Shown here: positions 9,159-62,951 of the stretch, piece by piece
How positions within the stretch are numbered: position 1 is the stretch's first letter
Layout of the letters: each line of letters opens with the position of its first letter
Made by a program: the position numbers and the translations under genes
Source: an uncultured Acholeplasmataceae bacterium
GTDB taxonomy: Bacteria > Bacillota_I > Bacilli_A > Acholeplasmatales > UBA5453
NCBI GenBank assembly: GCA_964649865.1
Contig: CAZYSQ010000001.1
Coordinates: 13,849 to 77,848 of the forward strand
Reading direction: 5' to 3'
DNA: 64,000 bases
The notes under the pieces: model-generated
What the model was told of the DNA's origin: nothing
Databases searched by the model: none
The model's input: the letters and a program-made list of their open reading frames with translations, nothing else

Positions 9159-9342
9159 CAGTCCGATCCCCACTAGCTCATCTCCGTGCGGACGCACACC
9201 TCGCAAGGGGAGGCATGCGGGCGACCTGCTTGCTCCCACGTCATCGGCGTTGCGCCCCCTACTCGGTTGTGGATGGACACCCATGAGAGTAAGCACTGAG
9301 TACACGCTATCAGTACTTGCTCAAGTTGCGTATAGTTGAGGC

Positions 9343-15184: not shown

Positions 15185-15606
15185 GAGTGCCGCCCAGCCG
15201 TGTCGTACGCCTGCCGGACGATCGAGTTGATCGACTGCAGAACCTTCACCTGCGAGTCCAGGCGCCGCGCGTAGTCCTGCGCGTTCATCCGAACGACCTT
15301 CGCGGCCTGGTGCGCCCAGTACGGGTCAGGGATCCGGGCGCACAACCACTCCTCCTGCGCCGCCTTGCTCACGCCACTGCGTGTCGGGTCCGGGCAGTCC
15401 GGGTCCAGCAGGTGCGGCTGCTTGGCGTCGGAGTACGCCTTGAGCGCCTGGATCTCCTTGTAGCGCGCCTCCCGCAGGGCACGCTGCGCGTAGTACAGCT
15501 CGTTGTGGAGCCCGCGCAGGTACCGGTCCACATCGGCGGGGGTGAGGTCGGCGTCCAGGTCGATCGGTTCGAAGTTGTCCTGCGGGCGGGTCTGCTGCTC
15601 GGTCAT
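15181..15606 (-). CDS. hypothetical protein
   Basis: ATG 15606 (MTEQQTRPQD...) forms ATGA with the upstream stop. Confidence 0.55.
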   Translation of the reverse strand: MTEQQTRPQDNFEPIDLDADLTPADVDRYLRGLHNELYYAQRALREARYKEIQALKAYSDAKQPHLLDPDCPDPTRSGVSKAAQEEWLCARIPDPYWAHQAAKVVRMNAQDYARRLDSQVKVLQSINSIVRQAYDTAGRHS

Positions 15607-16649: not shown

Positions 16650-17110
16650 CGCCGACCCTCCCAAGACTTCGCCGTGTTGCAGGAAAGGCACGCAGGACGA
16701 ATATTCGCTGGGAGGTTGAGCCCACCCTTTCCGATGGGCTTCACGTGATCGATCGTGTCGGCGTCGCCTCCGCATACCCAGCAATGACCGCCGAAGTAGG
16801 CGATCCGAGCCTCTAGCGCTTCGGCGGTTAGGACGCCCAGCACACCTAGCTGGTCAGCTCTCCGGTTGTGGAATGCAGCGATCCGGGCTAGGCGATTGCG
16901 CTGGTAGTAATCGCGAGCAATGACACGGAGACGCTCAGGGTCACGAGCCGCGTTGTTGGCCTTCAGCCTCTCTGGGTTGTTTCGATTCCACTCCCGTGTG
17001 GCCGCCTTAAGCCGTTCAGCATTGGCCCGGTAGTACGCCGCGTTGTAATGGCGGGAGCAAAGGCCCTTCGCTTTGACGGAGCGATCGCATTTGGAGCATG
17101 TGGGGGGCAT
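16646..17110 (-). CDS. HNH endonuclease (homing-type)
   Basis: CWVCGGDADTIDHVKPIGKGG...NIRPACLSCN. Visibly lower GC3 than its neighbours. Confidence 0.85.
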   Translation of the reverse strand: MPPTCSKCDRSVKAKGLCSRHYNAAYYRANAERLKAATREWNRNNPERLKANNAARDPERLRVIARDYYQRNRLARIAAFHNRRADQLGVLGVLTAEALEARIAYFGGHCWVCGGDADTIDHVKPIGKGGLNLPANIRPACLSCNTAKSWEGRR

Positions 17111-23269: not shown

Positions 23270-24331
23270 ATGTCCATCGTCGATGAATCCGGCATCACAC
23301 CGGAACCCGGCGACCACCCCATCCCCCTACCCGAGATCCGAGCCCTCGACTGGCTCGACATCTGGCACCACCACCACACCAAATACCCCGACCTCGCCGC
23401 CGAGCAGGACACAGCCGCGTTCGCCGCCGCACTCGACTACTACTCCGACTCCTGCGACGTCCCCGGCGCCTACCTCCGCGCCCTCCGCACCGGCACGCCC
23501 GACACCCGCTACCGCATCACCATCGACGGCCGGGACGTCTACATCGTCCTCGCGCACCCGCCCGGCCCCGTGGACCCGCCACGCGAGTCCGAATCCTGGG
23601 CCGAACTCTGCCACGCCATCGCCACCGCGACCGGCTGCGACGGCATCCACCCCGCCCTCCCCCGCGAACTCGCCCTCGCCATATGGACCGACGACAACGG
23701 CCACGAAATCACCGCGTGCCGGCCCGGCGCCCCCGTCGGCGCGATCCGCCGCGCCCGCTCCAGAATCCGCCGCCGCCTCACAGCACTCTCCCCGCTCCCC
23801 CTCGCCGGTGTCCTCGCCCAACCCCTCACCGGCAGCGCCACCCTCGTAGGCATCGCACTCGCACCCGTCATACCGCCCATCCACACCACCCCGCCACCAG
23901 CACCAGTGGTCCGCGAGTACGCCGGCGAGATCGACCGCCCCGAACTCCCCCACATTCCGGGGCTGCGCCTCACCGCGGCTACACCCACCCCACTCGCGCC
24001 TCTGACTCCCGAGCGGCCAGACGATGCCGCAGCCCCCGACACCAGCCCCCGCCCGACCATCACCCCCGCAGCGCCGACCACGGCACCCACCACACCTGCT
24101 GCCAGCCCCACACCGGGCGTCTCCACCCGCCCCACACCGACCAGCAGCCCCGCACCCGAAACAACCTCCGCCGACCCGACACCCGCGCCGACACAGCCAG
24201 ACCAGCCCCCCACGGACGACACAACCCCTACGGCGCAGCCGTCACCCAGCAGCAGCCACACACCCCGCGGACACGCCTACGGGCACGACAGACACCGGCA
24301 CAAGCCGCACCCGTCACACCGGCGCCGCTGA
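23270..24331 (+). CDS. membrane-anchored protein with Pro/Thr-rich C-terminus, between repressor and integrase
   Basis: ATG 23270 (MSIVDESGITPEPG...). Hydrophobic segment LSPLPLAGVLAQPLTGSATLVGIALAPVI, then PT-rich low complexity. The 3' end overlaps the int 3' end by 18 nt. Confidence 0.5.
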   Translation: MSIVDESGITPEPGDHPIPLPEIRALDWLDIWHHHHTKYPDLAAEQDTAAFAAALDYYSDSCDVPGAYLRALRTGTPDTRYRITIDGRDVYIVLAHPPGPVDPPRESESWAELCHAIATATGCDGIHPALPRELALAIWTDDNGHEITACRPGAPVGAIRRARSRIRRRLTALSPLPLAGVLAQPLTGSATLVGIALAPVIPPIHTTPPPAPVVREYAGEIDRPELPHIPGLRLTAATPTPLAPLTPERPDDAAAPDTSPRPTITPAAPTTAPTTPAASPTPGVSTRPTPTSSPAPETTSADPTPAPTQPDQPPTDDTTPTAQPSPSSSHTPRGHAYGHDRHRHKPHPSHRRR

Positions 24332-26146
24332 CCCGCCCGCGTCTTTACCGTCGTCCCGGCTGTTCGGCTGCCGCCACACGATCCGCACCGACTCCTCGAT
24401 CGTGAACCGTTTCTTGTCACGCAACGGCAGGATCTCCACCCGGTCCACCAGCGCCCGGATCACGGCCCGCCGCTGCGGCAACGACCGCGCCCCCCACGCT
24501 GCCCTGACATCGTTCACGTCCGGCAGCAGCAGCCCCTCCAACACCGGCCCCACCCGCACCTGGGCCAACCGTGCACGCGTCGCCTTGATCGCGGGTTCCA
24601 GAGTCGACTCCACCCGCAACAGTCCCTCCAACGACAGTCCTTTGCCTGTCGCATACGAGTCGCGAGCCTCGTCCAAGCGGGCCTGCATCCCGGCGATCTC
24701 CGCCGTCATCTCCGAAAGCTGCGACTCCACCCGCGCGTCCTCCGCTGTCAGCAGCTCCGCCAAGTCGGGCCGTGCCAGCCGCAGCCACACCGACCGTTCC
24801 ACATGGTCATCCACGTCTTTCATCGCGCGGGCCACGTGGTAGCTCTTCTCACGGTCGTCACCGGCTACGACAAGCTTCATCTCGCCGCGGCGGGCACGCT
24901 CGGCCTTCAGCCGCAGGCTCAGCGTGGACGGCCACAACCCCAGGCCCCGGGACACGCTGGCCTGAGTGACGCCGGTCTTCACCAGATCCAGGATCATCGC
25001 GGTCTGTTCTCCCACCGGTAGCCGGGCCAACACCGCGAGATCCTCTGCGTCCGCCTCCCTCGCTGCCCTGCGGGAACTACGCGCCACCAGAACCCTCGGC
25101 CGGCACGTGTACGCCAGACCGTTCCGGCGAGTGATCGGACGCACCACCGCACCGCACACCCCACACACGTACAGGCCCGACCCCAGATACTTGATGCTGG
25201 TGTCCTTCACCTTGCGCCGAGCCTGATCCGACAACCGCGCCACTAGGGCGTAATGGTCCGCCTTGCCCACCAGCGGCGGCCACGTCCCCTCCGCCACCAC
25301 CTCCCCGTAATACGACCGCATCCCCGCATACGTCGGGCTCATCGCAACCCGCCGCACCGCAGTCGGCGACCAGCCACGGTCACCGCCCGCAGGGGCAGGG
25401 ATACCGCGCCAATTCAGATCCGCGGCAACACTCCGTGACGCCTCTCCCCTCAACACGCGCCGTGCGATCTCCCGCACCACCCCAGCCCGCGTGTAGACAG
25501 ACACCTCGCCTGTGCGGGTCTTCGCCGACCGCGGCTCATCATCGGGTTCCTGGCTGACGATGTGCCGCTGCCCATGCCGGTCCACCTCGTATTCGCGGAC
25601 GTACCCGTATGGCACTGTCCCGTGAGGCTGACCCACCAACGCCATCGACTCAGTGTCCCGCTGGATCCGCTCAGAGGTCCGCTCCGCCTCGTCTGCGCTG
25701 TCCAGGCCCTCTTCGGCGAGAGTCTTGTAGTCGCGGCGGCGCCGCGGGTCGTAGGTGCGGCGGTGTGAGGTGATGTGGATCAGCACGCCGATCTTCCGGC
25801 ATGTGTGCAGGAATTCAAGCCAGCGCAGGTCGTCACGGTCACCGCGGGAAACCTCCCACACCACCACAACGTGGTACCGGCGAGCGGCCACGTCGGCGCG
25901 TAGCCGGTCCCAGTCAGGACGGGGTTTGGTCGCGAACCGTGACGCGGGCCGGTTGTTGTCGCAGTAGACGGCGTCCTCGGCGAGGACCCATGCTTCGGCC
26001 GCGCACACGGCACGGTTCCCGTCGTCCTGCTCTTTGACCGATCGGCGCCGCCCGGAGCGGTCCTTGCTGACCCGGTCGTAGATCGCGGCAAGCAGCGGGG
26101 TTCCCGCGTCGAGGGCTGCGTGGGCGAATCCGAGGGGGCGTGGCAT
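24314..26146 (-). CDS. int: large serine recombinase (phage integrase)
   Basis: Catalytic AAIYDRVSKD, VVVVWEVSRGDRD, and a long recombinase / zinc-ribbon / coiled-coil C-terminus. ATG 26146 is preferred over 26182 because the 36 nt between them are low GC. Confidence 0.9.
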   Translation of the reverse strand: MPRPLGFAHAALDAGTPLLAAIYDRVSKDRSGRRRSVKEQDDGNRAVCAAEAWVLAEDAVYCDNNRPASRFATKPRPDWDRLRADVAARRYHVVVVWEVSRGDRDDLRWLEFLHTCRKIGVLIHITSHRRTYDPRRRRDYKTLAEEGLDSADEAERTSERIQRDTESMALVGQPHGTVPYGYVREYEVDRHGQRHIVSQEPDDEPRSAKTRTGEVSVYTRAGVVREIARRVLRGEASRSVAADLNWRGIPAPAGGDRGWSPTAVRRVAMSPTYAGMRSYYGEVVAEGTWPPLVGKADHYALVARLSDQARRKVKDTSIKYLGSGLYVCGVCGAVVRPITRRNGLAYTCRPRVLVARSSRRAAREADAEDLAVLARLPVGEQTAMILDLVKTGVTQASVSRGLGLWPSTLSLRLKAERARRGEMKLVVAGDDREKSYHVARAMKDVDDHVERSVWLRLARPDLAELLTAEDARVESQLSEMTAEIAGMQARLDEARDSYATGKGLSLEGLLRVESTLEPAIKATRARLAQVRVGPVLEGLLLPDVNDVRAAWGARSLPQRRAVIRALVDRVEILPLRDKKRFTIEESVRIVWRQPNSRDDGKDAGGSAAPV

Positions 26147-26182
26147 GACGATACGATAGCTTGAAGTATTGACAACGCGCAT

Positions 26183-26221
26183 CGTCCAGAGACACGCTCG
26201 TACCTACGTGCTTCAGGGACG
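26183..26221. other. candidate attP-like imperfect inverted repeat upstream of the serine integrase
   Basis: CGTCCagagaCACG ... CGTGcttcagGGACG flanks a ctcgtaccta centre. Weak, seen by eye only. Confidence 0.25.
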
Positions 26222-40468: not shown

Positions 40469-40795
40469 ATGCCCGCGCTCCACCGCCGCAGCCTCCACAT
40501 CCAGCTGCCCTGGGACGACCCCGTCCCGCCCGGCCTGGCCCTGGAGATCCCCGCCTGGACCGAAAAAGCACGGTGCACCGAGGTCGGCGGCGACGAATTC
40601 TACCCCGAGAAGGGCCAGTCCAGCGTCCCCGCCAAGCAGGTGTGCATGGGCTGCGAGGTCCGCATGCAGTGCCTGGAGTGGGCGCTCGACAACGGTGAGC
40701 GCTTCGGCGTGTGGGGTGGGAAGTCCGAGCGGGAGCGCCGCAAGATCGCCCGCGACCGCCGCACCGCCGCAACCGTCACGGAGGTGTCGGCATGA
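40469..40795 (+). CDS. WhiB-family transcription factor (second copy in the window)
   Basis: CTEVGGDEFYPE...CMGCEVRMQCLEWAL...GVWGG. Confidence 0.85.
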   Translation: MPALHRRSLHIQLPWDDPVPPGLALEIPAWTEKARCTEVGGDEFYPEKGQSSVPAKQVCMGCEVRMQCLEWALDNGERFGVWGGKSERERRKIARDRRTAATVTEVSA

Positions 40796-42051
40796 AGCTC
40801 ATCTGGAAGCACACCCGGCCGCCGGTGGTCGAGTCCGTTCAGGACCAGACCGCCCAGGCCGCGGACCTTGCCCGGATCCCCGGGCAGGACATGCTCACCG
40901 ACCCGCGCACCAACCCTGCGGTCCGGGCCCTGCTCGACCACCTCCGTAACGAGCAGCACCGCATGCAGCTCGAAGCCGAACACGGGAGGGCCAAGCGCCG
41001 GCACCGTGTCGACGACCGTCACCGTGCCGAGGCCGAGCTGACCCTGCACGCCATCCTGCAAGCGAAGCAGGCGTCCTCTCCGGCCCGCTCTGTCCTCGCC
41101 CTGCACCGCGGACGCACCTGGTTCATGGGTGCTTCTCTGGCCGCGTCGGTGTCCCTGTCCGTCGGGTCCGCGTTCGGTGTGGGGCATCTCGCCGACGAGC
41201 TCGGCGCCCCCAAGGTCACCGGGTGGGTGGCTGAGGTCGGCATGGTCGGCCTGTCCACCATCACGATCCTCTACCTGGCACACCTGTTCCGCCACGGATG
41301 GGTGCCTTCCGTCCTGCACCGGCTGCTGCTGGGGTTCCTGGCGATCGGGCCGCTGCTCGGTTCGGTGGTCGCGAACTCGTTCGGTGCCGGCCCTGTCGGT
41401 GTCGCCTGCTCGGTGGGCGCAGCGTTGTTCGGGGTGTTCAGCCACCTCGTGAGTGACAACTCGGCTGGTGCGCTGCGGAAGAAGGCGGACGAGGTCGGGA
41501 TGGAGGACGCGCAGGCGCTCCGCGCCACGGCGCTGGGCGACGACCTGTTCGCTCTGCCTGCCGAACCGCGAACCACTGAAGAGGTTCCAGAACCGGAGTT
41601 CGCGAACCAGCAGGTTCAGGTTCACGCGGAGGTTCAGGAACCACCCGCTGTGGAGGTTCACGAACCGGCCGTCTCCGAGGTTCGCGAACCGCAGCAGGTT
41701 CCGAACCACGCTCCCGAACCCGCGAACCCCGAACCGGGCGAGAACCGCGAACCGGTGAACCCCGAACCGCAGGTTCACGAACCCGCCCCGGCCGAACCCG
41801 CGAACTCCGAGGTTCCAAACCACGAGCCCACCACGCAGCACAAGTCCCGCACCAAGCCGGCCACGAGCCTCAACGACCGCGCCCAGCGGAAGGCCGCCGA
41901 GGTTCAGCAAGTCGTGGACCTGATCCGTGAGCGGGGCGAGGACGCCGTGACGCTGAACGTGGTTCGCGAGGAACTCGAGTTCGCGAAGACGACCGCGTAT
42001 CACCGCCTTGTCGCTGCCCGCGAACTCGTGAACCAGGCGGTGGCGTCGTGA
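40792..42051 (+). CDS. polytopic membrane protein (DUF2637-like) with a repeat-encoded Pro/Glu linker and C-terminal HTH-like domain
   Basis: ATG 40792 forms ATGA. Four hydrophobic segments. Linker EVPEPEFANQQVQVHAEVQEPPAVEVHEP... is encoded by the GAACC repeat field. Confidence 0.6.
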   Translation: MKLIWKHTRPPVVESVQDQTAQAADLARIPGQDMLTDPRTNPAVRALLDHLRNEQHRMQLEAEHGRAKRRHRVDDRHRAEAELTLHAILQAKQASSPARSVLALHRGRTWFMGASLAASVSLSVGSAFGVGHLADELGAPKVTGWVAEVGMVGLSTITILYLAHLFRHGWVPSVLHRLLLGFLAIGPLLGSVVANSFGAGPVGVACSVGAALFGVFSHLVSDNSAGALRKKADEVGMEDAQALRATALGDDLFALPAEPRTTEEVPEPEFANQQVQVHAEVQEPPAVEVHEPAVSEVREPQQVPNHAPEPANPEPGENREPVNPEPQVHEPAPAEPANSEVPNHEPTTQHKSRTKPATSLNDRAQRKAAEVQQVVDLIRERGEDAVTLNVVREELEFAKTTAYHRLVAARELVNQAVAS

Positions 42052-42250
42052 ACCTGAAGCACGCGAACCCCGAACCGCGAACCTCTGAGTCTGGAACCTG
42101 CGCTGCCGCGAACCTCGGCCAGCAGTGCCCCGAGCCGGCCACGCTTCTTGAACCTGTCGCGCTCTGCGACGAGCACAAGGTTCAGGTTGCCCTACTGGTT
42201 GCGCCCGAGGTGCTGTCTGCTGTCCTTGCTGAGGTTCGCGTGAACCAGCA
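41563..42250. repeat. dense GAACC/GGTTC repeat field (candidate clt / TraB recognition array)
   Basis: About 37 GAACC or GGTTC pentamers by manual count in ~690 bp. Eight exact CGCGAACC octamers. Palindromes GGTTCGCGAACC and GGTTCACGAACC. Spans the junction of two genes. Confidence 0.8.
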
Positions 42251-42818
42251 TGGCCCCGGCCATCCCTCCCCCTCCGTCGAAGTCCAGTTGATCAACGCCG
42301 CACAGGCGGTCAAGACACCGGCCGATGAGCGGCATGAGCCGCTCGTGTACTTCATGGCCAACGGCGGCCGGGTGAAGATCGGCCACACGAAGAGCCTGGC
42401 CGCGCGCCTGCGGGCGCTCTCTCTTCCTGGCGATGCGGTCCTCCTGCTTCTGCAGGGCGGGCTCCCCCTCGAACGCGCTTTGCACCTGAAGTTCCGCTCT
42501 TTCCGGATCGGCAAGAGCGAGTGGTTCGAGCTCGCGCCCGAGATTGTGCACTTCATCGCAAGCAAGAGCACCACACTGAACCGCCCTCTGACCAGCACGA
42601 ACAGGCTCGGCGGCCGGTTCGGTGTGGCGCGGAGGCCGCGCCGCACACGCGATCAGATCCGGGTCCAGCTCGAGGCGGCGCTTCGGGACCGTGCCCCTGG
42701 GACGACTCTGCGCGTGAAGCCGCTGGCGGAGCAGATCGGAGTGAATCGGCGCATCGTTCGCGAGCTTCTCGACGAGATGGGCGTTCGCCCAGCTGAGGGG
42801 CGCAGCGATGGCAGGTAA
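42048..42818 (+). CDS. T5orf172 (MUG113, GIY-YIG-superfamily) domain protein with C-terminal HTH
   Basis: LVYFMANGGRVKIGHTKSLAARLRAL ... ERALHLKFRSFRIGKSEWFEL. C-terminal AEQIGVNRRIVRELL. Confidence 0.68.
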   Translation: MNLKHANPEPRTSESGTCAAANLGQQCPEPATLLEPVALCDEHKVQVALLVAPEVLSAVLAEVRVNQHGPGHPSPSVEVQLINAAQAVKTPADERHEPLVYFMANGGRVKIGHTKSLAARLRALSLPGDAVLLLLQGGLPLERALHLKFRSFRIGKSEWFELAPEIVHFIASKSTTLNRPLTSTNRLGGRFGVARRPRRTRDQIRVQLEAALRDRAPGTTLRVKPLAEQIGVNRRIVRELLDEMGVRPAEGRSDGR

Positions 42819-43053
42819 GCGTCGTGGCACGGGCCGGCCGTATCAGCGGCGCTCGCGCCCAGAACGGCGACGGTCCGCCCTCAACGTCGAGCTTGCCGCT
42901 GCCCACGACTCAAGAGCCCGGGTCGCACTCGCTGCGGACTATCTGCGCAGCGCACTCGCGATCCATCCCGATCCGGCCACCGCTGAGGAAGCCGTGAATC
43001 TGCTGATTCAGGCGGCCGACCGCCTGTATGCGAGGAAGGAGGCACAGACGTGA
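42808..43053 (+). CDS. hypothetical basic protein
   Basis: ORF track. Confidence 0.45.
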   Translation: MAGKRRGTGRPYQRRSRPERRRSALNVELAAAHDSRARVALAADYLRSALAIHPDPATAEEAVNLLIQAADRLYARKEAQT

Positions 43054-43553
43054 CCGCGACCGAGAGTGACATCCAGTCCGCCAAGCAGGCGGGGGGAGAG
43101 GGAACTGTGCACTGTGCAGTGCACAGTCCGGGAGAAACCCCGGATGCGGGACCCAACGCGCGCCCGCGCGGGCGCCCGCGCGAGAGTAGCGGTGAGAGTG
43201 CACAGTCGCAACCCGACAGTGCACCCCCGCCGGAGGCCGACGACCCCACCCCGCCGGTCACGTGGAGTGACCGTCTCGCGGACACCGCGCGCGGGTTCTC
43301 CCCGCCGGACATCTGGTCGACGGACCGGCCGTCCCTGTCCCTCATGTGGGGGTACGCGGCCCGCGGCGACTGGACGACCGAAGCCGGGCTGCCGCGCCGT
43401 GCCGGGCAGGTATACGCGGTCTTGGTCGCGGTCCCGGTCACGGCCGTCACCTACCTCCTGGCGTGGGCCGCTGAACGGCCGTCCCGCCTGGCCGCAGCGA
43501 TCGTGCTGCTTGTCCTGCTGTTCCGGGTCCCGCCGCTGGCGTGGCTCACCTAA
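43050..43553 (+). CDS. membrane protein (Spd-like)
   Basis: GTGA coupling. C-terminal TM pair VYAVLVAVPVTAVTYLLAW / AAAIVLLVLLF. Confidence 0.55.
   Translation: MTATESDIQSAKQAGGEGTVHCAVHSPGETPDAGPNARPRGRPRESSGESAQSQPDSAPPPEADDPTPPVTWSDRLADTARGFSPPDIWSTDRPSLSLMWGYAARGDWTTEAGLPRRAGQVYAVLVAVPVTAVTYLLAWAAERPSRLAAAIVLLVLLFRVPPLAWLT
43104..43224. repeat. 24-bp perfect palindrome plus dispersed GTGCACAGT / GTGCACTGT 9-mers
   Basis: ACTGTGCACTG-tg-CAGTGCACAGT at 43104-43127. AGTGCACAGT at 43197-43206. ACAGTGCAC at 43216-43224. Confidence 0.7.
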
Positions 43554-43572
43554 CACCGAAAGGAGACTCGTC

Positions 43573-44016
43573 ATGGGATGGGTCGTTCTTCTGCCCACCG
43601 CCGCCGTGTGGTTCGTGGTGTCCAAGCGGGTACGGCTCCGCCGTGGCGCCGCGGCGGTGTCCGTCGCGGTGATGCTGCTCGCCGCGATCGCCGGCTGCGG
43701 GTTCGCGTACACGTTCGCCGGGCGCTGGTTCGCCGGGCTGGTCGCTTGGATCGGCCGGATCCTCGCGAACATCACCGGTGAGGCTGGGATCGCGTCCGGG
43801 ATCGCTGTCTCGCTCACCCTGCTGCTGCTGCTGACCGCGGTCGCCGACATCGCCTGTGACCGCCGCGCGGACCGTGCCGCGCAGGTGTCGGCTTTCCTGA
43901 TGCCGGTGGCGCTGGCGCTGGTCATCGGCGGGTCGCTGGGAGCCAGTGGCGGCACCGCCGTCGAGTCGGTCACCAGCCAGGTGTCGGCGTTCATGTCCCA
44001 GATCGGGGGTGCGTGA
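43573..44016 (+). CDS. polytopic membrane protein (Spd-like)
   Basis: ATG 43573 follows an AAAGGAG SD. Four hydrophobic segments. Confidence 0.6.
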   Translation: MGWVVLLPTAAVWFVVSKRVRLRRGAAAVSVAVMLLAAIAGCGFAYTFAGRWFAGLVAWIGRILANITGEAGIASGIAVSLTLLLLLTAVADIACDRRADRAAQVSAFLMPVALALVIGGSLGASGGTAVESVTSQVSAFMSQIGGA

Positions 44017-45236
44017 TGGATCCGCTGTCGGCGATGCTGCTGGCGCTGTGGGTCGCCGGGTACTTCACCCGCAACACGGTGCAGGACCTGGTGTGGAAGG
44101 CGCGGGGGGAGGACCCGCCGTCGGTGCGGCGGGAGCAGGCCCGCCGTGAGCGCCGCGCCGAGCGGGCCGCGGACCCGGGGCCGGGCCGCCGGTTCTGGGG
44201 GCATGTGTGGGCTGACGCGGTCGCGTCGGCGGAGGAGCACCGCGAGCGTGTCGCTGCGCGGAAGGCCCAGAAGCGCCGGGCCCGGTGGTCGGAGCAGGAC
44301 GCTGCCGCGGCGGAGGACGAGGCGTACGAGACCAACGAGCGGTTCGTCCCCGCCGAGGAACCCACCGCCACCATCGAGCCGGCGAAGCGCGACGAAGGCG
44401 TCTGCGACACCTGCAACAGGGCGTGCAAGCAGTCCGTGCTGGTGACCCGGCGCGTGGACGGCTACGGGCGGCTGTGGGTCTGCCCATCCTGTGCTGAGGA
44501 CCTCAAGGCGGGCCGGACGGTGCCGCTCATCGCCGAGCGGGACCAGGCCGATCCTGTCGTCCACGACGAGGTCGTCTGGTACTGCCGGGGATGCGGCACC
44601 CGCATGTGCAACGCCGGCATGGACTCCTACGAGCGCGGCGAGGAACTGTGCCGCGCCTGCCGCGCCATCGAGGACAATGCGGCGGCGCCGCGTCGCTGCC
44701 GCTTCTGCCACCGCACCTTCCCCACCGTGGAGTTGTGGCCCACGCGCACCACGGACGGGCAGACGGTCGGGGCCTGCCCGGACTGCTGGCACGACCAGAA
44801 CACCCACCGCCCCGCACCGGCCACCGTCGACGACGCAGAGCAGCCGGAACCACCCACCACCGCCGACCCCGAACCGGGGGACGCGGAGATCATCCAGTTC
44901 GCCGACTGGCAGCGCCCCGCCACCGGCAGCACCGAGAAGGAGAACAACATGTCCGCTGAGATCACCGGCCTGCAGTCCGCGATCGCCTACGCGACAGGAT
45001 CCGCCGCCGCCGCGGAACGCGCCGCGGGCCAGGACGAGATGGCCATCGCCAACCTCCAGGCCGGCGGTACCACCGGTGCCGCGATCGCGAGCCTGCAGGC
45101 GTCGATGGAGGGCCACACCCAGAACGCCGCCCACTACCGCGCCGCAGCGGCAACGCTGACGCAGCAGCTGCAGGTCAAGGAGGCGTACGAGGCGAACCAG
45201 GGTGCTGGCGAGAAGAAGTTCGTCACCTCCGAGTAG
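44013..45236 (+). CDS. membrane-anchored protein with several CxxC zinc-ribbon units and a C-terminal helical domain
   Basis: N-terminal TM, then CDTCNR..CPSC, CRGCG..CRAC, CRFCH..CPDC. Confidence 0.55.
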   Translation: MMDPLSAMLLALWVAGYFTRNTVQDLVWKARGEDPPSVRREQARRERRAERAADPGPGRRFWGHVWADAVASAEEHRERVAARKAQKRRARWSEQDAAAAEDEAYETNERFVPAEEPTATIEPAKRDEGVCDTCNRACKQSVLVTRRVDGYGRLWVCPSCAEDLKAGRTVPLIAERDQADPVVHDEVVWYCRGCGTRMCNAGMDSYERGEELCRACRAIEDNAAAPRRCRFCHRTFPTVELWPTRTTDGQTVGACPDCWHDQNTHRPAPATVDDAEQPEPPTTADPEPGDAEIIQFADWQRPATGSTEKENNMSAEITGLQSAIAYATGSAAAAERAAGQDEMAIANLQAGGTTGAAIASLQASMEGHTQNAAHYRAAAATLTQQLQVKEAYEANQGAGEKKFVTSE

Positions 45237-45336: not shown

Positions 45337-47388
45337 ATGGACACCACCACGATGGAGCCGCCCGCCACGGTCGGCGCACCCGAGCCCGACCGGTTCACTG
45401 CCGTCCCGGCGCAGCCCGATGCGTCTGCGTCGTCCGGGCGGTGGAACGCGGAGGGCATGGTCGGCCGGGCCCGCACCGACGCCTACGACACTGCGGTGCG
45501 GCTCCGTGCGCAGATCGCGCCGCACGCCGCCGCAGGGGCTGTCTTGGCGGTCGGGTTGGGGATGGACTCTGTCGTCGCCGCAGGTGGCATGTCCGCGCCC
45601 GCTATGGCGTTGACGGCTGCGGCGGTGTCCGCTCCGACCGTCACGGGGCTGGTGTTGCGTGCCCGCGCCCGCGGCTCGGAATGGGTCCGCCGTCTCCTGA
45701 TCGGTGGCGTCGCCGCAGCGGGCTGGCTCGTGGCCGCACCGTTCGGTGTTGAGCCGGTCAGTGTCGCCGCACTCGTCGCTGCCGAGTACGCGGTTGCCGC
45801 GCGGTGGTGGCAGACCCACCGGCCCGGCTACCCCGGCGACGATGTGCCCGAACTGGCCACCGAGGACGCGCTCCCGGAGGAGGAGCCCGTCCCCGAGCCC
45901 CTCACACCGGTCGAGCAGATCGTCGCGGACTGGGACGAGTACATCGCCTGTTCCGGCGGCCCGCTGCAGAACTCCCGGCTGATCGCCCCTCAGCAGCACA
46001 AGCACGGGTTCGCGTTCACGCTGCAGCTGTGGCGGGGCCGGCACACCCTCACCAGTGCGATCGCCGCGCTCGACAAGCTCGCGTCCGGGTTGGACTGCGG
46101 CGTTGATCAGATCATCGTGGAGTCTCACCCGCTGCTGAAGGGGGAGGCGAACTGCCGGTTCCAGCTCATCACCAACTCCCCGATCGCCGGGGACGTGGTG
46201 TTCGATGGGCCCCGCCGCCGCGGCGGACTACTGGAGCTCGGTCCGTATGCGGACGGGTCCGGCGAGGCGCCGTACCGGTTGTACACGCCCGGGTCGATGT
46301 GGTCCGGCGTCATCATCGGCGGCACCGGCATCGGCAAGTCCCGCGTCGTGGAGAACATCATCATCTCCGCGCTGTCCGGCGGCGACACCGAGTTCTGGTA
46401 CCTCGACCCGGCCCGCGGCGGGTCCAGTCCCGCCCTCGCCGAGGCCGCGGACTGGTTCGTCACGATGGACCAAGTCGACGTGTTCCTCGACACGGTCATC
46501 GCGGTCCTGGAGGCCCGCACCGATGAGAACGCCGTCGAGGGGTGGACGGGGTTCACCCCATCGCCCGAGCGGCCGGGACTGCTGATCGGGGTGGAGGAGT
46601 GCCACAACCCGTTCCAGGGGGCTGAACGCGCCGAGAAGTGGGCGAAGATCGCCCGCGAGGGACGCAAGGTCGGGATCTCCCTGCTGTGTGTCTCCCAGTA
46701 CCCCGGTCTGATCACCTTCGGCGGGAACGAGGCGCTGCGGTCCAGCGTGATGGAGGGCAACGCGCTGGTCCTCCGCTCCACCAGCAACCAGACCGGTGGG
46801 CTGATGGCCGGGTTGACTGTCGACCCCAAGAGCCTCCCGAAGATCCCCGGCTACGCCTACGTGCAGGGGTCGGAGGAGACCGGGACGCGCACGGCCCCGT
46901 TCAGGAACCGCAACACCGCGCCCCCGAACGGTCCAGGCGCCGGCCGATGGCTCGCGTCCCAGCCCCGTCCCGGACTCGACGTGCTCGCCGTGACCGCGAC
47001 TCTCGCCGCCGGCCCCGCCTACCAGGACCGGCGCACCTCAACCGACACCGGCCGTGCCGGTTCCCGCGCACGCGTCGAGTCGCTCCGCAATGGGCACCTG
47101 CCCGCCGACATGCTCAAGGGCCGGAAGAACACCGCCGAGGTCCCCACCATCGCCCAGGTGATCGAGTTCCCCCAGTTCCGCCTCATCGAGACAACCACGC
47201 CCGCGTCTGGCCTCAGCGCCTCGCACCAGGCCGTGCTCGACGCGGTCGCCGCCGGCGTCACCCGCCCCGCCGACATCGAGACGGCGGTCGGGTTGAAGCA
47301 CCGCCGTGTCGCCGCGATCCTCGCCGACCTTGTCACCTCCGGGCACCTCACCAAGACCGGCCACGGCCGCTACCAGACCGCGGCCTAA
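45337..47388 (+). CDS. traB: FtsK/SpoIIIE-family DNA translocase, Streptomyces TraB/TraSA-like
   Basis: N-terminal TM region, Walker A GGTGIGKS, Walker B LLIGVEE, and a C-terminal wHTH (VTRPADIETAVGLKHRRVAAILADLVTSGHLTK). Confidence 0.85.
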   Translation: MDTTTMEPPATVGAPEPDRFTAVPAQPDASASSGRWNAEGMVGRARTDAYDTAVRLRAQIAPHAAAGAVLAVGLGMDSVVAAGGMSAPAMALTAAAVSAPTVTGLVLRARARGSEWVRRLLIGGVAAAGWLVAAPFGVEPVSVAALVAAEYAVAARWWQTHRPGYPGDDVPELATEDALPEEEPVPEPLTPVEQIVADWDEYIACSGGPLQNSRLIAPQQHKHGFAFTLQLWRGRHTLTSAIAALDKLASGLDCGVDQIIVESHPLLKGEANCRFQLITNSPIAGDVVFDGPRRRGGLLELGPYADGSGEAPYRLYTPGSMWSGVIIGGTGIGKSRVVENIIISALSGGDTEFWYLDPARGGSSPALAEAADWFVTMDQVDVFLDTVIAVLEARTDENAVEGWTGFTPSPERPGLLIGVEECHNPFQGAERAEKWAKIAREGRKVGISLLCVSQYPGLITFGGNEALRSSVMEGNALVLRSTSNQTGGLMAGLTVDPKSLPKIPGYAYVQGSEETGTRTAPFRNRNTAPPNGPGAGRWLASQPRPGLDVLAVTATLAAGPAYQDRRTSTDTGRAGSRARVESLRNGHLPADMLKGRKNTAEVPTIAQVIEFPQFRLIETTTPASGLSASHQAVLDAVAAGVTRPADIETAVGLKHRRVAAILADLVTSGHLTKTGHGRYQTAA

Positions 47389-47419
47389 CTCCCACACCGC
47401 AACAGGAAGGAACCGACCC

Positions 47420-47671
47420 ATGCGCGCCAACACCTGGGACGACGTGGAGCGTCTCATCCTCACCGCGACCCGCGAGCCCGCCACCGCCCGGCAAGTCACC
47501 GACTCCACTGGCCTCACCGACCGGATCGCCCAGGCGCAGCTCGATGTGTTCCAGCGCCAAGGGCTCCTCATCCAGACCGTGGACGTCGGTGTCCGCTACG
47601 AGCTCACTCTCGCCGGGCGGCAGCGTCTGGCGTCCCTCGACCCCCAGCCCGGCCACCAGGCAGCGGCCTGA
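47420..47671 (+). CDS. winged-helix (MarR-like) small protein
   Basis: ATG 47420. ATARQVTDSTGLTDRIAQAQLDVFQRQGLL. Confidence 0.5.
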   Translation: MRANTWDDVERLILTATREPATARQVTDSTGLTDRIAQAQLDVFQRQGLLIQTVDVGVRYELTLAGRQRLASLDPQPGHQAAA

Positions 47672-47745
47672 CTGGTCTGGTGCTGCGTCCTGGCGGCCAC
47701 TACCCCCGTGGTGGCCGCCTCACGGAACACCAGAACGGAGACACC

Positions 47746-47982
47746 ATGCCTGATAAGAACCGCATCGTCACCCCGTACACCGACCCCAACCGGTTCACCC
47801 CCGAAGAGAAGGCTGCGTTCGACGCCGGCGAATGCTGCTGGGACTGCGGCGACTCCCATTGGGGGCAGCGCGACACCAAGTGCCACGAGCCGAGCGCCCC
47901 CGACGCGCCGATGGGGTACTGCGTCGGCCACGTCGAGACGCTGCTAGAGGACCACTGGCCGGACGGGAGCCCCCGCCGATGA
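47746..47982 (+). CDS. hypothetical Cys-containing protein
   Basis: ATG 47746 (MPDKNRIVTPY...). Confidence 0.45.
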   Translation: MPDKNRIVTPYTDPNRFTPEEKAAFDAGECCWDCGDSHWGQRDTKCHEPSAPDAPMGYCVGHVETLLEDHWPDGSPRR

Positions 47983-48092
47983 GCACCACATGCTCCAGAT
48001 GTGGTGCACCGAAAAGCATCACCCGGGTCTTGGACCCGCTGACCGGCAAGACCGTCAAGAAGGTCACTCAGCCGTGCCGGAGGTGCACGTGA
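47979..48092 (+). CDS. 37-aa zinc-ribbon peptide, not called at this start in the track
   Basis: MSTTCSRCGAPK...CRRCT. ATGA and GTGA coupling. Confidence 0.35.
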   Translation: MSTTCSRCGAPKSITRVLDPLTGKTVKKVTQPCRRCT

Positions 48093-48274
48093 GCCACGTC
48101 AACTTTGACGTAGACGGAAACGGACGCTCAGCGCTCATCACCATCACCGCCTCAGAACGCGGGCAGACCGTCCGGATCCACGCACGCATGGACCAGGACT
48201 CCCTTCGCCGCCTCATCCGGAAGCTGTGCGACCGGGCCGGGCTGCCTGAACCGTGGAAGGAGGAGACACGATGA
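48089..48274 (+). CDS. hypothetical small protein
   Basis: GTG 48089 forms GTGA. Confidence 0.45.
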   Translation: MSHVNFDVDGNGRSALITITASERGQTVRIHARMDQDSLRRLIRKLCDRAGLPEPWKEETR

Positions 48275-48711
48275 GTCTCGCAACGATGGGTGGCGTGTAC
48301 GCCGCTCTCCACGCCGGCCACACCGTGGGCGACTACTGGGGTCAGAGCGACTACCAGGCGCAGGTGAAGGGGAAGCCCGGCACCGACGGGCAGGCCGCGT
48401 GCGCGCGGCACGTCGCGGTCCTCACAGCCACACAGGCAGCGTTCCTCGGTCTCGCCTGCCTCGCCACAGGGGAACGACTCAACGCCCGCCGTGTCGCCGC
48501 TGGGCTGGCCGTGAACGCTCTCTCCCACTACGCCATCGACCGCCGCGACCACGGCGTCATGCCCGTGTTGTGCCGAGCCCTGTGCCGCTACGGCAAGGAA
48601 GACTTCGCCGCGGCTGGCGACGGTCTCGCGACCGGGGCCGCGCTACTCGACCAGGCGTGGCACATCGGATGGTGCGCCATCACCGCAGCCGTCATCGCTG
48701 GAAAGGACTAG
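48271..48711 (+). CDS. membrane protein, DUF3307-like
   Basis: HAGHTVGDYWGQSDYQA resembles the HxxGD(F/Y)xxQ signature of DUF3307. ATGA coupling. Confidence 0.45.
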   Translation: MSLATMGGVYAALHAGHTVGDYWGQSDYQAQVKGKPGTDGQAACARHVAVLTATQAAFLGLACLATGERLNARRVAAGLAVNALSHYAIDRRDHGVMPVLCRALCRYGKEDFAAAGDGLATGAALLDQAWHIGWCAITAAVIAGKD

Positions 48712-49550: not shown

Positions 49551-50570
49551 GTGACCGAACTCGTCCCCCACAGTGCCGCGCCCGCCGGCGGCCCGCTGCT
49601 CGCGCTCACATCTCCTCCACACGGTGCCGCTGACCCGTACCTGGTGTACCGGAACTCCCTCGACAGCGCCGAGTCCAAGACGACCATGACCGCATGCCTC
49701 GACCGCATCGCCCGCATGATCCTCGAAGAGGAGATCGGCGAACCACTCCCCCGTGACCAGACGGTCACCGGCGCAGGCCGGTCCTGGTGGCTCCTCAGAT
49801 ATGAGCACACCTCACGTATCCGCGACCTCCTACTGCAGACAGGCTGGTCCCCCAGCCACGTCAACAAGCACCTGTCCGCGCTCCGACGCGTACTCAAGGA
49901 ATGCCAGTACCTCGGCCTGATGAGCGCCGACCAGTACGAATCCGCCGCACGGATCAAGAACGTGAACGCCAAACGAGAGAAGGCCGGCCGGAACCTCAAC
50001 GCGGACGAGCTCGCGTCGATGCTGCGCGTCTGCGAGAACGTCGAAGGGCCCGCTGGCGTGCGGGATGCCGCACTGATCGGTGTGCTGTGGTGCACGGGCG
50101 CGCGACGGGAAGAGGTCGCGAACATCGTCCTGGAGCGCTACGACGCTGGCACCCGCGCTCTGAAGCTCACTGGCAAGGGCAACAAAGAACGCGCGGTCTA
50201 CATCCACCCGCGGGTACTCCCCCACCTGGAAGCCTGGCTGTCCTTGCTCGGCACCCGTCGGGGGCCGATGTTCCAGCCGGTCGACCGGTGGGGGCATGTG
50301 CGGACGGGAGGGATGTCCAAGCGTGCGGTCGGGATGGTCGTTGCGCGGGTCCGTGCCCGCGCCGGCCTCCCGCCCCTGTCCACGCACGACTTTCGACACA
50401 CCTTCATCGGTGACCTCCTCGACAAGGGCGTCGACCTAGCCACGGTGCAGGCCCTCGTGGGGCACGCGTCCCCCGTCACCACTGCGGCGTACGACCGGCG
50501 TCCTGAGCGCGTCAAGCAGGACGCCGTGGACAGCCTCGACTACCCCGGCAACGACAGGAGTGAGACATGA
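49551..50570 (+). CDS. int: tyrosine recombinase / integrase
   Basis: GARREEV (Arg I), HDFRHTF (HxxR), GHASPVTTAAYDRR (catalytic Tyr), and an N-terminal SAM-like domain. Confidence 0.88.
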   Translation: MTELVPHSAAPAGGPLLALTSPPHGAADPYLVYRNSLDSAESKTTMTACLDRIARMILEEEIGEPLPRDQTVTGAGRSWWLLRYEHTSRIRDLLLQTGWSPSHVNKHLSALRRVLKECQYLGLMSADQYESAARIKNVNAKREKAGRNLNADELASMLRVCENVEGPAGVRDAALIGVLWCTGARREEVANIVLERYDAGTRALKLTGKGNKERAVYIHPRVLPHLEAWLSLLGTRRGPMFQPVDRWGHVRTGGMSKRAVGMVVARVRARAGLPPLSTHDFRHTFIGDLLDKGVDLATVQALVGHASPVTTAAYDRRPERVKQDAVDSLDYPGNDRSET

Positions 50571-59307: not shown

Positions 59308-60174
59308 TCAGGGGTTGCCGATGCGCGCGGCGAGCTCGTTCACGACCTGCTCGGCCAGCTCAGCGGGGATCGCCGCGGCGATCTTCTCCGGGGTGAGGCC
59401 GGCCAGGACAGCGGCAGCGATCGCACCCTCGTCGACGTCTGCGGCGGCCGGGTCCCGCGCGAGCAGCTGAAGAACGCCGTCGTGCGCGGTCTCCAGCGCG
59501 ACGCCGACCGTGTGCCCGCGGCGGTTGTACTTCGCGGTGAGCAGCTGCTCGACCGTCTCCTTCGCGATGGCCTTCCTGTCATCCTCGGAAACCACGTCGT
59601 CCTCCTCGAACATCCAGCGGGGCATCGGCCCCGGGTCGGTGTGATCGTTAGCGGGCACGTGACAGTGCCCGAAGTGACCGGACCTGTTCCGCCAGTTCGC
59701 CGCGTTGCGGGAGTTCCCCGACCATCGCGGCCAGCCGGACGGCCACTCATCCTCGACGCCCCAGGAGCGGAGCCACGCCATGATCTCCGGGAGGCCCTTG
59801 CAAGGTGTGTCCGCGACCGTGGCGTACTTCCGCCCGTCACGGACGGCGCCGGGCGAGAAGAACACCTCGATCTGAATGCACACGCGGCCCATGCGGTTGG
59901 TTTCGGCTGTGCCAGCGGGGTGGGCGAGCGCTCTCGCGGATTGGTTGGCCGGATAGAACTGGACAATGCGTCCGGTCCACGGGTCCCACATCAGGTGCGG
60001 GGCGTAGTTCACGGACTGCAGGTAGCCCGCGATGTTGTCGAAGGCGGGTTGCTTCCCGCCCTTCCCGAGCGAGTCCCACGTGATATGCCACACGGCGCGG
60101 GCCGGTCCACCCGCCATGCTGCCGCCGTTGCCTTCGGGACGGCGTTCCGCGCCAGACATCCACAGGTCTGCCAT
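59308..60174 (-). CDS. endolysin, N-acetylmuramoyl-L-alanine amidase-like
   Basis: WHITWDS ... RVCIQIEVF ... GHCHVPANDHTDPG. ATG 60174 follows a GAGGGGAG SD. Flanked by small TM proteins. Confidence 0.6.
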   Translation of the reverse strand: MADLWMSGAERRPEGNGGSMAGGPARAVWHITWDSLGKGGKQPAFDNIAGYLQSVNYAPHLMWDPWTGRIVQFYPANQSARALAHPAGTAETNRMGRVCIQIEVFFSPGAVRDGRKYATVADTPCKGLPEIMAWLRSWGVEDEWPSGWPRWSGNSRNAANWRNRSGHFGHCHVPANDHTDPGPMPRWMFEEDDVVSEDDRKAIAKETVEQLLTAKYNRRGHTVGVALETAHDGVLQLLARDPAAADVDEGAIAAAVLAGLTPEKIAAAIPAELAEQVVNELAARIGNP

Positions 60175-60207
60175 GTCAACGGCTCCCCTCTTCGCCACGA
60201 GTGGGCA

Positions 60208-61593: not shown

Positions 61594-62940
61594 TCATCGC
61601 CTCTCAAGAGTGTTGAGCCGCCGCTCGATCGCGCTCGGCCAGCGGCGAAAATCAGGTTTCGGGCCGCCGAGGGTGAGGGTGACGGCCTCGCCGCCCTCCT
61701 CGTCCACGTCGAGCTGGACCTCGAACACCCTGGCCGTGGTGTCCACCGCCAGGCGCCCCGACGGGACAATCAGCCGGACCGTGTCCCCCACCCAGATGTG
61801 GTCCGGGCCCTCCCAGCCGCCGCGGACGAGCCGCACCGTGTACGTGGGCCGGATCACCTGCGACTGCGCAAGCTGCCATTCAGCGCGTTCATCCAAAGCG
61901 GCCTGCGTCACAAGACCGTCGTCGCCGAGCGCGGAATCCCACCGGCCCTGCGGATAAGCGCCGACCACATCCAGGTACGGGGCTTCCAACTCCGCCGGCG
62001 ACGGGCCCGGGGTCACATCGTCGCCCTGCGCACCAGTGAACCGGAGCGCGTTCGCGTACCCGCCCGTGTCGACCTCGCGGGACACCGTCGCGGCAAGGCC
62101 CCCCTGGACGAGGACCACACCCCGGTCACTGCCACGCTGCGGATACCACGCCTCCAGCGCCAGACCCGACGCCGACTGCGGCAAAATGTCCCAGTCGAAA
62201 CCGTTGATGACGTCGGACAACTCCTGGATCCGCTGCCCTATGGAGTCGCCAACTTCATACGTCCGATCACGGGCAACACCGGTGTAGCCGTCCGGGAACG
62301 CCTTGGCGATGCCCAGGCCACCGGACGTGTGCGTCTGTGTCTGCTGGATCAGGTCCCAGGCGATGTCGGTCTGGTCGACGGCGGTGTAAGTGAGCGTGTC
62401 GCCGGTCCACAAGATGCGGCGCCCGAGGACGGCCCGGTAGTCCAGGCAGGACACCTCGGTGCGGTGCTGGTTCTCGTCGATCTCGTCGCGGGTGCCGCCG
62501 ACCCGGCACCTGTCCAGGATCCGTGTGCCGGTCGCAGTCGAGAAGAGAAGGTGGACGTCGGTGGCCAACTCCTGGATCGACGCGGCTTGCGGGTGGCGTC
62601 CGTCGATGGAGAAAGACAGGTCGCTGTTGTCGGTGAGGCGGGCGGTGTAGCGGCGCCCCGTCGCCTCGGTCAACGCCAGTTCATGCCCGCCGGACGCAGG
62701 CCCGATGACGAGTTGCCAGCGGGTACGAGGGCGGGGCGGCGGCCCGATCCCCGTTTGCTTGGTGCCGGTGAGAGTAAGCGACGGTGCCCCGGCAAGAGCC
62801 AGGTCACCGGACCGGCCGGCGGTACCGGTAAGGGTCAGGGACGGTGACCCGGCGAGGACGAGGTCGCCGTGCGGCGGGCCGCCACTCGGAACCCTGCCCA
62901 CAACGGGCCGGGCCGGTTGGCCGCGCCCGAGCCTGGCCAT
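61594..62940 (-). CDS. minor tail protein (tail-tip / baseplate-hub-like)
   Basis: 448 aa in tail-gene position. N-terminal near-duplicate GDL(V/A)LAG(S/A)PSLTLTGT. No enzyme motif seen. Confidence 0.55.
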   Translation of the reverse strand: MARLGRGQPARPVVGRVPSGGPPHGDLVLAGSPSLTLTGTAGRSGDLALAGAPSLTLTGTKQTGIGPPPRPRTRWQLVIGPASGGHELALTEATGRRYTARLTDNSDLSFSIDGRHPQAASIQELATDVHLLFSTATGTRILDRCRVGGTRDEIDENQHRTEVSCLDYRAVLGRRILWTGDTLTYTAVDQTDIAWDLIQQTQTHTSGGLGIAKAFPDGYTGVARDRTYEVGDSIGQRIQELSDVINGFDWDILPQSASGLALEAWYPQRGSDRGVVLVQGGLAATVSREVDTGGYANALRFTGAQGDDVTPGPSPAELEAPYLDVVGAYPQGRWDSALGDDGLVTQAALDERAEWQLAQSQVIRPTYTVRLVRGGWEGPDHIWVGDTVRLIVPSGRLAVDTTARVFEVQLDVDEEGGEAVTLTLGGPKPDFRRWPSAIERRLNTLERR

Positions 62941-62951
62941 CGGCTACCCCC

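Follow-up and report, generated by a model that had tools for sequence, protein, structure and literature searches.

The clt loci of Streptomyces plasmids, among them pSVH1, pIJ101, pJV1 and pWTY27, consist of short, element-specific repeats that serve in recognition by the translocase TraB (PMC3583192; PMC4447253). In the Streptomyces model, TraB specificity lies in helix alpha-3 of its winged helix at the C-terminus, and the clt repeat of pJV1, CCGCACA[C/G][C/G], is present in nine copies (both quoted in PMC3583192). One clt locus overlaps the 3' end of traA, and TraA binds repeats within its own gene (PMC3583192). SpdA2 likewise binds sps inside its own gene (PMC4170104), and RepAM binds 8-bp repeats in the 3' part of its gene (PMC2440964). 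Further, SpdB2 binds double-stranded DNA (dsDNA), oligomerises, co-purifies with TraB and has homologues on actinophages (PMC4447253). Here, we analyse a 64-kb stretch of contig CAZYSQ010000001.1 (positions 13,849 to 77,848, hereafter the window), which covers about 64 of the about 97 kb of a phage-like element. In this window, an array of 39 copies of the pentamer GAACC/GGTTC lies in a membrane-protein gene and the start of the next gene, upstream of a TraB-like translocase gene. The array word tracks the type of helix-turn-helix (HTH) domain fused behind the linker of the membrane protein, and not the winged helix of TraB. On sequence comparison, we see about an even chance that the array is an element-specific cis site, clt-like or centromere-like, which the membrane protein's own HTH would bind and read.

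The array extends over 41563-42246 and comprises 26 GAACC and 13 GGTTC pentamers (start positions 41563-42242), against a window background of 1.8-2.2 per 688 bp (Poisson P = 1.3e-37 for the 39-copy array) and a maximum of 5 in any other 690-bp stretch of the 64 kb. A first-pass annotation of this DNA had counted about 37 by hand where one or two would be expected, and its eight exact octamers, its two palindromes and its quoted linker peptide also proved correct. The array holds eight copies of CGCGAACC and three of GGTTCGCG, with the palindromes GGTTCGCGAACC (once) and GGTTCACGAACC (twice). Alignment of all 39 copies yields the 8-bp consensus C-N-Y-G-A-A-C-C; 32/39 copies have C at position -3, and 32/39 have C or T at -1. 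The sites are distributed over three blocks: 26 in 41563-41815, only 3 in the HTH-coding stretch 41816-42049, and 10 in 42050-42246. Neighbouring sites are 7 bp apart in 9 of the 25 gaps of the dense block, where 3.3 would be expected (P about 0.003), and such pairs include both direct pairs and GGTTC-NN-GAACC pairs. Rfam families and promoter-like and terminator-like signals were checked, and none accounts for the array. Open reading frames (ORFs) called in other frames or on the opposite strand across it (e.g. 40600-42003 on the minus strand and 41453-41758 on the plus strand) were taken as artefacts of high G+C content.

The array is maintained by selection at the DNA level and is not a peptide repeat. 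In the first gene, plus-strand words fall 11 times in frame 0, once in frame 1 and six times in frame 2, and all 11 minus-strand words fall in frame 2; in the next gene (42048-42818), the word is read in all three frames. Rare codons are used to spell it: of the 21 Val codons in the array 13 are GTT, whereas twelve reference genes of the window use GTT for 31 of 413 Val codons (P = 2e-9), and for GAA the figures are 14 of 27 Glu codons in the array and 64 of 303 in those genes (P = 1e-3). Selection therefore acts on the DNA of the array, where one word fills three frames, both strands and two genes and forces rare codons. The same preference reaches into a conserved domain. A conserved Val of the HTH that we name type A is encoded by GTT, giving GGTTC, in 7/7 elements with the GAACC word, and by GTC, giving GGTCC, in 2/2 orphan copies lying inside fields of another word, RGACC. 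The Pro/Glu-rich, low-complexity linker that the array region encodes is unalignable and highly variable in length among 16 homologues, and is built from the same DNA word every time. Frames, codon use and synonymous choice thus exclude the origin that the annotation had named as fatal to its proposal, a by-product of a conserved protein repeat.

The element-specific word was then related to the rest of each locus among relatives, which were sampled as the surroundings of TraB homologues 29-85% identical to that of the window; about 20 kb was compared, with 10-kb flanks of the relatives (loci carry L numbers). Word counts were set in a matrix, each beside the number that the remainder of the locus would predict. 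The annotation had asked whether related elements keep a repeat field with a different word, and they do: every relative that has the gene after whiB carries an array in its 3' part, and the word differs between elements, with at least seven different words at the same position. Relatives with TraB 51-81% identical have same-place arrays of RGACC, GTGNCCAC, GGTCAC, ACCGGT, GACACG and CCGCAC. Each word goes with one type of HTH. Type A is paired with GAACC in seven elements (the window, L033, L029, L005, L006, L007 and L037; 21-39 copies vs 1-2.5 expected) and type C with RGACC in four (L002, L028, L030 and L040; 34-44 vs 6-7). Type B1 is paired with GTGNCCAC in L001 and L003, and also in L004, which stands outside the count matrix; TGNCCAC reaches 17-24 copies in two B1 elements where 0.5 is expected. 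Single elements represent type B2 with GGTCAC (L032; 8 copies vs 0.6), type F with ACCGGT (L042; 10 vs 0.5), type H with GACACG (L043; 14 vs 0.6) and type E with CCGCAC (L044; 38 vs 1.8). The matrix is block-diagonal: classes A, C, B1, H, E and D2 show no cross-enrichment among themselves, and the B1 and F arrays also have GGTCAC mildly raised. Types B1 and B2 share a fold and differ in both recognition helix (VNRRIVRELLDEM and IGRDRARRLLDQM, respectively) and word.

This pairing was also predictive, as loci fetched by HTH type alone had the expected word (GAACC in L037, type A; RGACC in L040, type C). Two unrelated N-terminal membrane domains occur with type A and with type C, and the word follows the HTH in 4/4 combinations; it does not track the N-terminal domain, and hhalign of the two membrane-domain families aligns only linker and HTH. 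The 55 homologues of the N-terminal domain diverge directly behind a conserved GDDLF-like motif, beyond which at least eight HTH types follow, each with its own set of linker peptides. WhiB, the three genes downstream and TraB follow the backbone phylogeny and not the word. The winged helix of TraB is 91% identical over 34 residues between the window and L002, with helix 3 identical, yet the words are GAACC and RGACC. Helix 3 and wing are likewise 85% identical between L029 (GAACC) and L030 (RGACC) and 82% between L028 (RGACC) and L003 (GTGNCCAC), but only 44% between L001 and L003, which share the word GTGNCCAC. Mean identity of helix 3 and wing is 0.64 for pairs of the same word class and 0.59 for pairs of different classes. 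An assignment of the word to TraB is unsupported because its recognition elements are near-identical across different words and divergent for the same word.

Some repeat fields among the relatives were set apart from these arrays. The AGGACG fields of L008-L010 (e.g. L010 8250-9160), in the gene upstream of traB of distant relatives, keep largely to a single frame, in which the word supplies the Asp codons of an acidic stretch; they were rejected and are probably compositional. The TGAACAC arrays of L011 and L012 weigh only weakly because they too are mostly in one frame. In L041 (pAGRA3207_2, NZ_CP059574.1; 12235-12978), ACCTGA occurs 16 times in 500 bp in a gene of this 16-kb plasmid annotated as a pentapeptide-repeat protein, and this field is probably a protein-level repeat. 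In L044 (Actinomadura bangladeshensis, JAAGLI010000213.1; about 6600-7480), the 38 CCGCAC copies lie within 800 bp, spread evenly over three frames, and the array stands directly upstream of the traB-like gene. Searches beyond this set added little: megablast of 38-50 kb against plasmid and phage collections gave no matches, a genome-contig scan with the TraB alignment gave 600 pattern matches and no confirmed relative, and a metagenome scan gave mostly short or distant loci.

The likely start of the array-bearing gene is not 40711 but the ATG at 40792, where it overlaps with the stop codon of whiB. AlphaFold2, run with 16 sequences, predicts a long N-terminal helix (residues 42-94), four transmembrane helices (97-232), a disordered linker of about 110 residues (246-354; pLDDT about 31) and a C-terminal three-helix domain (360-418; pLDDT 85-92), the type-A HTH. 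The putative recognition helix is KTTAYHRLVAAREL, and the invariant residues of the domain concentrate in helix 3. A weak profile match to the N-terminal HTH of TetR (E 0.03) agrees with local fold matches, and Foldseek with the full model returned no significant match, only TetR-N-like local alignments. AlphaFold2 run on a single HTH sequence produced a pair of long helices, and this model was set aside. The gene had been labelled DUF2637-like, a label that does not hold: Pfam offers no family for the protein, PF10935 (DUF2637) is unmatched even at E <= 1 and is matched only by the distant positional analogues in L010 and L012, and hhalign of the window protein family against the L010 protein gives a probability of 0.4%. 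Similarity to SpdB of pIJ101 was not found by hhalign (probability 0.3%), and a protein search with the linker and HTH fragment alone had no matches.

How does this locus compare with the described systems? Like clt loci, the array clusters short repeats (5-9 bp), direct as well as inverted and particular to the element, within a dsDNA transfer module of the TraB type; both may overlap coding sequence and are presumed to seed a higher-order protein-DNA complex at the membrane. Unlike them, the array spreads 39 sites over 0.7 kb (684 bp), where they pack 3-9 sites into 50-175 bp; its position is 3.1 kb upstream of traB and not at the 3' end of a tra gene as in the pWTY27-type examples (the clt of pIJ101 lies near korB); and its word covaries with the HTH of another membrane protein. 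It would resemble clt in its working but departs from it in two testable defining features, covariation with TraB helix 3 and compact size beside a tra gene. The KOPS of FtsK and the SRS of SpoIIIE are also short 8-bp words, read by winged-helix domains of the hexameric pump, but they are chromosome-wide and strongly strand-polarised, whereas the array is local and its GAACC/GGTTC strand ratio is inconsistent among relatives (26:13, 29:9, 8:15 and 15:16).

The proteins that bind within their own genes are closer in some respects. SpdA2/sps of pIJ101 and related plasmids shares with the locus a spread- or stability-type protein whose sites in its own coding sequence appear as a recurring peptide motif (PMC4170104). 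However, sps is a single conserved 12-bp palindrome (CGTCACGTGACG type) in 1-3 copies in the small spdA gene, common to many plasmids, as opposed to tens of copies of at least seven cassette-specific words in the gene of an integral membrane protein with a C-terminal HTH. RepAM of the pMEA300-type integrative and conjugative elements shares the 8-bp repeats in the 3' part of the presumed binder's gene; it is a soluble replication initiator whose repeats form one hairpin with a nick site, whereas the array has no nick site and lies in a membrane-protein gene. By description, SpdB2 of pSVH1 has an N-terminal coiled coil, four transmembrane helices and a C-terminal domain in about 410 residues (PMC4447253), and going by the predicted model the array-bearing protein is SpdB2-like in architecture only. 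DNA binding by SpdB2 was reported as non-specific, in contrast to the sequence-specific HTH and cognate array proposed here. Binding-site arrays inside the binder's own gene are therefore already known from actinomycete mobile elements, and what stands out is how large this array is, that it also codes for a disordered tether, and that it diversifies in the manner of a cassette. The open literature held no description of such arrays that we could find.

We infer the binding of the array by the HTH, the tethering to the membrane and the link to transfer or spreading. In the proposed mechanism, the 39 units of 7-8 bp, often tiled every 7 bp in direct or inverted orientation, would be multi-copy binding sites housed where they are tolerated, namely in codons of the disordered linker, with an overflow into the 5' end of the next gene. 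Their most likely reader would be the three-helix HTH encoded mid-array, at the C-terminus of the 40792-42051 product. The four-helix membrane protein, presumably oligomeric like SpdB2, would bear its HTHs on flexible tethers of about 110 residues, and several tethered HTHs could bind the array jointly and so anchor the element's dsDNA to the membrane, close to the TraB-like pump and to the conserved membrane proteins. The array may thus act in cis as the site that is specific to the element and serves its transfer between cells and/or its spreading through the mycelium, with a Spd-like protein and not TraB as reader. Array and HTH would form one exchangeable cassette that sets element specificity. 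A wider and more tentative possibility, to which we give somewhat less than an even chance, is that in Actinomadura/Thermomonospora phage-like and conjugative elements the recognition of own DNA for TraB-type transfer has moved from the pump to a membrane anchor with an exchangeable cassette of array and cognate HTH. Because the array doubles as the codons of the tether, a nascent HTH could then capture in cis the DNA that encodes it, and swaps of such cassettes (at least eight types on one N-terminal domain) might create new transfer or incompatibility specificities.

Several observations weigh against reading by the membrane protein's HTH. The array and the HTH-coding DNA adjoin, and because they are contiguous, linkage in one recombining cassette alone could give the covariation. 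The reader may be encoded beyond the about 20 kb compared, and about 64 of about 97 kb of the element is covered. Type A and B1 HTHs occur without an array (the gene behind the array-bearing gene in the window; the orphan ORFs of L002 and L038). The pitch of 7 bp is tight for adjacent HTH domains, and the DNA-binding fold of the C-terminal domain is putative, drawn from a three-helix model of high confidence and from TetR-N matches that are weak. Within type A, a finer covariation that would pair His or Asn behind TTAY with C or T at -1 is not clean; it was dropped as a candidate because L006, L007 and L037 break it. Further, the anchor-protein homologue with a type-D HTH on a 16-kb Actinomadura graeca plasmid has only about two candidate sites (CA-CATCGA), and type-D relatives from the protein search have 1-3 copies of a GHID-like peptide. 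Dense arrays are not universal because these type-D homologues hold few sites or peptide copies.

An alternative with the same reader gives the array another job, as a centromere-like site for stability or segregation in the manner of SpdA2/sps, or as a self-regulatory roadblock, with no role in transfer. SpdA2 binds palindromes in its own gene, and its loss affects segregational stability and not transfer (PMC4170104); centromeres typically have dense multi-site arrays; and ParA or ParB domains were absent from the 40 window ORFs scanned (about 64 of the about 97 kb of the element), so that a membrane anchor could substitute for them. Yet most relatives whose context was read keep the gene in a conserved operon-like block with TraB and membrane proteins (in L043 with traB first), extrachromosomal stability is less obviously needed in an element that encodes an integrase together with a recombination directionality factor, and 39 sites go far beyond what autoregulation needs. 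We regard this alternative as rather unlikely, though it shares its reader with the transfer or spreading role and the two cannot be separated computationally.

The first-pass annotation had proposed a classical clt, with the array as loading site of the TraB-like translocase and the 8-bp word read by its winged helices. Its element-specific repeat array in a TraB-type module stands, while the winged helix as reader did not survive the covariation analysis. In its favour, the translocase is truly related to pIJ101 Tra, and the alignment takes in the winged helix. Short repeats peculiar to the plasmid likewise make up the known clt loci (PMC4447253; PMC3583192), the word changes from element to element as TraB recognition sequences should, and tiling at 7-8 bp would suit the six winged helices of a hexamer. 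In L043 and L044, no more than about 1.5 kb separates array and traB, and CCGCAC, the word of L044, is similar to the repeat in the clt of pJV1 (quoted in PMC3583192). On the other hand, helix 3 and wing do not covary with the word in the four pairs compared above, the array lies 3.1 kb upstream of traB with none at the traB 3' end, and it is 4-10 times the size of described clt loci. Reading by TraB is thus unlikely.

Another factor, from the host or from elsewhere in the about 97-kb element, could read the word, with the covariation of the HTH as hitch-hiking in one recombining segment. The contiguity of array and HTH-coding DNA, the comparison over 10-kb flanks of the relatives and the orphan HTH copies without arrays would all allow for it. 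On the other side, sites and linker length turn over fully while the word stays fixed per HTH type, across unrelated N-terminal domains and across backbones with TraB 51-81% identical; at least seven different words speak against a single host factor; and within the 20 kb compared, no further protein varies along with the word. Such a factor is distinctly unlikely in our view.

A replication origin, in which iterons would be bound by an initiator within its own coding sequence, is very improbable. Its model is RepAM of pMEA300, a protein whose gene ends in several identical 8-bp repeats that it binds (PMC2440964), and the folding of a single strand of the array does surpass that of shuffled controls (z = -3.7). 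This folding, however, is diffuse and a by-product of the inverted words, with no one hairpin, and the array-bearing protein combines four transmembrane helices with the lack of any Rep-like domain. The stretch 41000-43000 contains no nick site of the pC194 type (CTTGAT or ATCAAG). The iteron-type origin that the annotation had listed as an option does not fit either: theta-type origins have tandem 17-24-bp iterons in non-coding DNA, whereas the array is coding with units of 7-8 bp, and a true iteron cluster lies elsewhere. It consists of five palindromic iterons of about 24 nt (GGGGGGAACCTGTTCCCCCCTCTG) in a non-coding gap at 8672-8873, flanked by a DnaB-like helicase gene (6356-7753, minus strand) and a small winged-helix ORF (8893-9200, minus strand; weak MarR_2 and HTH_36 matches), and is a likely replication origin of the element. 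Lastly, an array without any DNA function, as a by-product of the Pro/Glu-rich low-complexity peptide or of replication slippage (Tandem Repeats Finder reports weak 7- and 15-nt periodicities), can practically be discounted, since one pentamer runs through three frames, both strands and a gene boundary, forces rare codons, is placed in the conserved HTH Val by synonymous choice, and is conserved where the linker peptides are not.

The neighbouring genes (Table 1) belong to a block in which the order from whiB to the array-bearing gene is kept in most relatives with context read. The 42048-42818 product clears the Pfam cut-offs for T5orf172/MUG113, in agreement with the T5orf172 label it had been given, and carries an orphan type-B1 HTH at its C-terminus; the B1-class word GTGNCCAC forms no cluster across the whole 64-kb window. 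In L002 (7101-7427) and L038 (about 2850-3180), a small ORF with a type-A HTH lies just downstream of the type-C cassette. These orphan copies look like stacked cassette replacement, perhaps helped by the nuclease-like domain.

Table 1. Coordinates of the array and of the surrounding genes in the window
Feature	Position	Strand	Basis or remark
GAACC/GGTTC array, 39 copies, C-N-Y-GAACC	41563..42246	26 on +, 13 on -	counts, weight table, frames, spacing
Dense block, 26 sites, in codons of the membrane protein's disordered linker	41563..41815	both	frames, codon use
Distal block, 10 sites, 5' end of next gene, three frames used	42050..42246		site positions, frame analysis
Array-bearing gene, 419 aa	40792..42051	+	AlphaFold2 model, homologues, ATG start
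Linker-coding segment, residues 246-354, hypervariable among homologues	41527..41853	+	model, homologue comparison
C-terminal HTH-coding segment, residues 360-418	41869..42045	+	model, profile, covariation
whiB-like gene	40469..40795	+	ATGA overlap, translationally coupled to array-bearing gene
T5orf172/MUG113 (GIY-YIG-like) domain and C-terminal HTH B1 (VNRRIVRELLDEM)	42048..42818	+	Pfam; 5' 200 bp with 10 array sites
Three conserved genes between array and traB	43050..45236	+	synteny, identities
167-aa membrane protein	43050-43553	+	
~147-aa membrane protein	43573-44016	+	
407-aa zinc-ribbon/coiled protein	44013-45236	+	
TraB-like FtsK-type translocase	45337..47388	+	N-terminal hydrophobic segments, Walker A GGTGIGKS, C-terminal winged helix

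For the three genes between array and traB, Pfam and PHROG offer no family, and their products are presumed partners in the transfer or spreading apparatus. The last of them, directly upstream of traB, encodes Cys-pair (zinc-ribbon-like) motifs, and its C-terminal segment (…EAYEANQGAG..F) is kept in L008-L012 and L017, even where TraB is only about 30% identical. The FtsK/TraB-type translocase with a C-terminal winged helix, which had been placed about 3 kb downstream of the array, was borne out. The Pfam FtsK model (FtsK_SpoIIIE) is unmatched at E <= 0.01; hhalign aligns the 45337-47388 product with pIJ101 Tra over ATPase and winged helix (probability 96.5%, E 1e-9), and by this sequence comparison it is a genuine relative of TraB/Tra. 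The region around the traB 3' end (46900-48400) holds no repeat cluster of the TraB-recognition type.

The window resembles a temperate phage, with endolysin, minor tail protein, serine integrase, Gp3-like recombination directionality factor, DnaB, PNKP, RNA ligase and TROVE/Ro60 genes. These phage-type genes coexist with the Streptomyces-type TraB/Spd module for dsDNA transfer (e.g. 24314-26203, 15603-16853, 59308-60207, 61594-62943 and 45337-47388), and a second recombinase, of the tyrosine type, is encoded at 49551-50570. Relatives were found as IMG/VR contigs of 87-105 kb. The 16-kb Actinomadura graeca plasmid is circular, and its homologous module consists of the anchor protein, a DUF3307 protein, a TraB-like protein, a GntR regulator and a NUDIX protein.

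If the membrane protein's HTH does read the array, the cis site of actinomycete dsDNA conjugation or spreading would not always be read by TraB, and a Spd-like membrane protein would be a sequence-specific DNA receptor, which would give a testable role to a protein class of unclear function. The locus would also be a case of overlapping codes, in which tens of protein-binding sites are held in the codons of a disordered linker, are visible as element-specific peptides and are exchanged together with the matching DNA-binding domain. The pairs of word and HTH (C-N-Y-GAACC, RGACC, GTGNCCAC, GGTCAC, ACCGGT, GACACG and CCGCAC) could serve as a table of predicted specificities of small HTH domains. 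Further, the combination of phage tail, lysis and integrase genes with a TraB module bears on whether temperate actinophage genomes may spread through the mycelium without particles.

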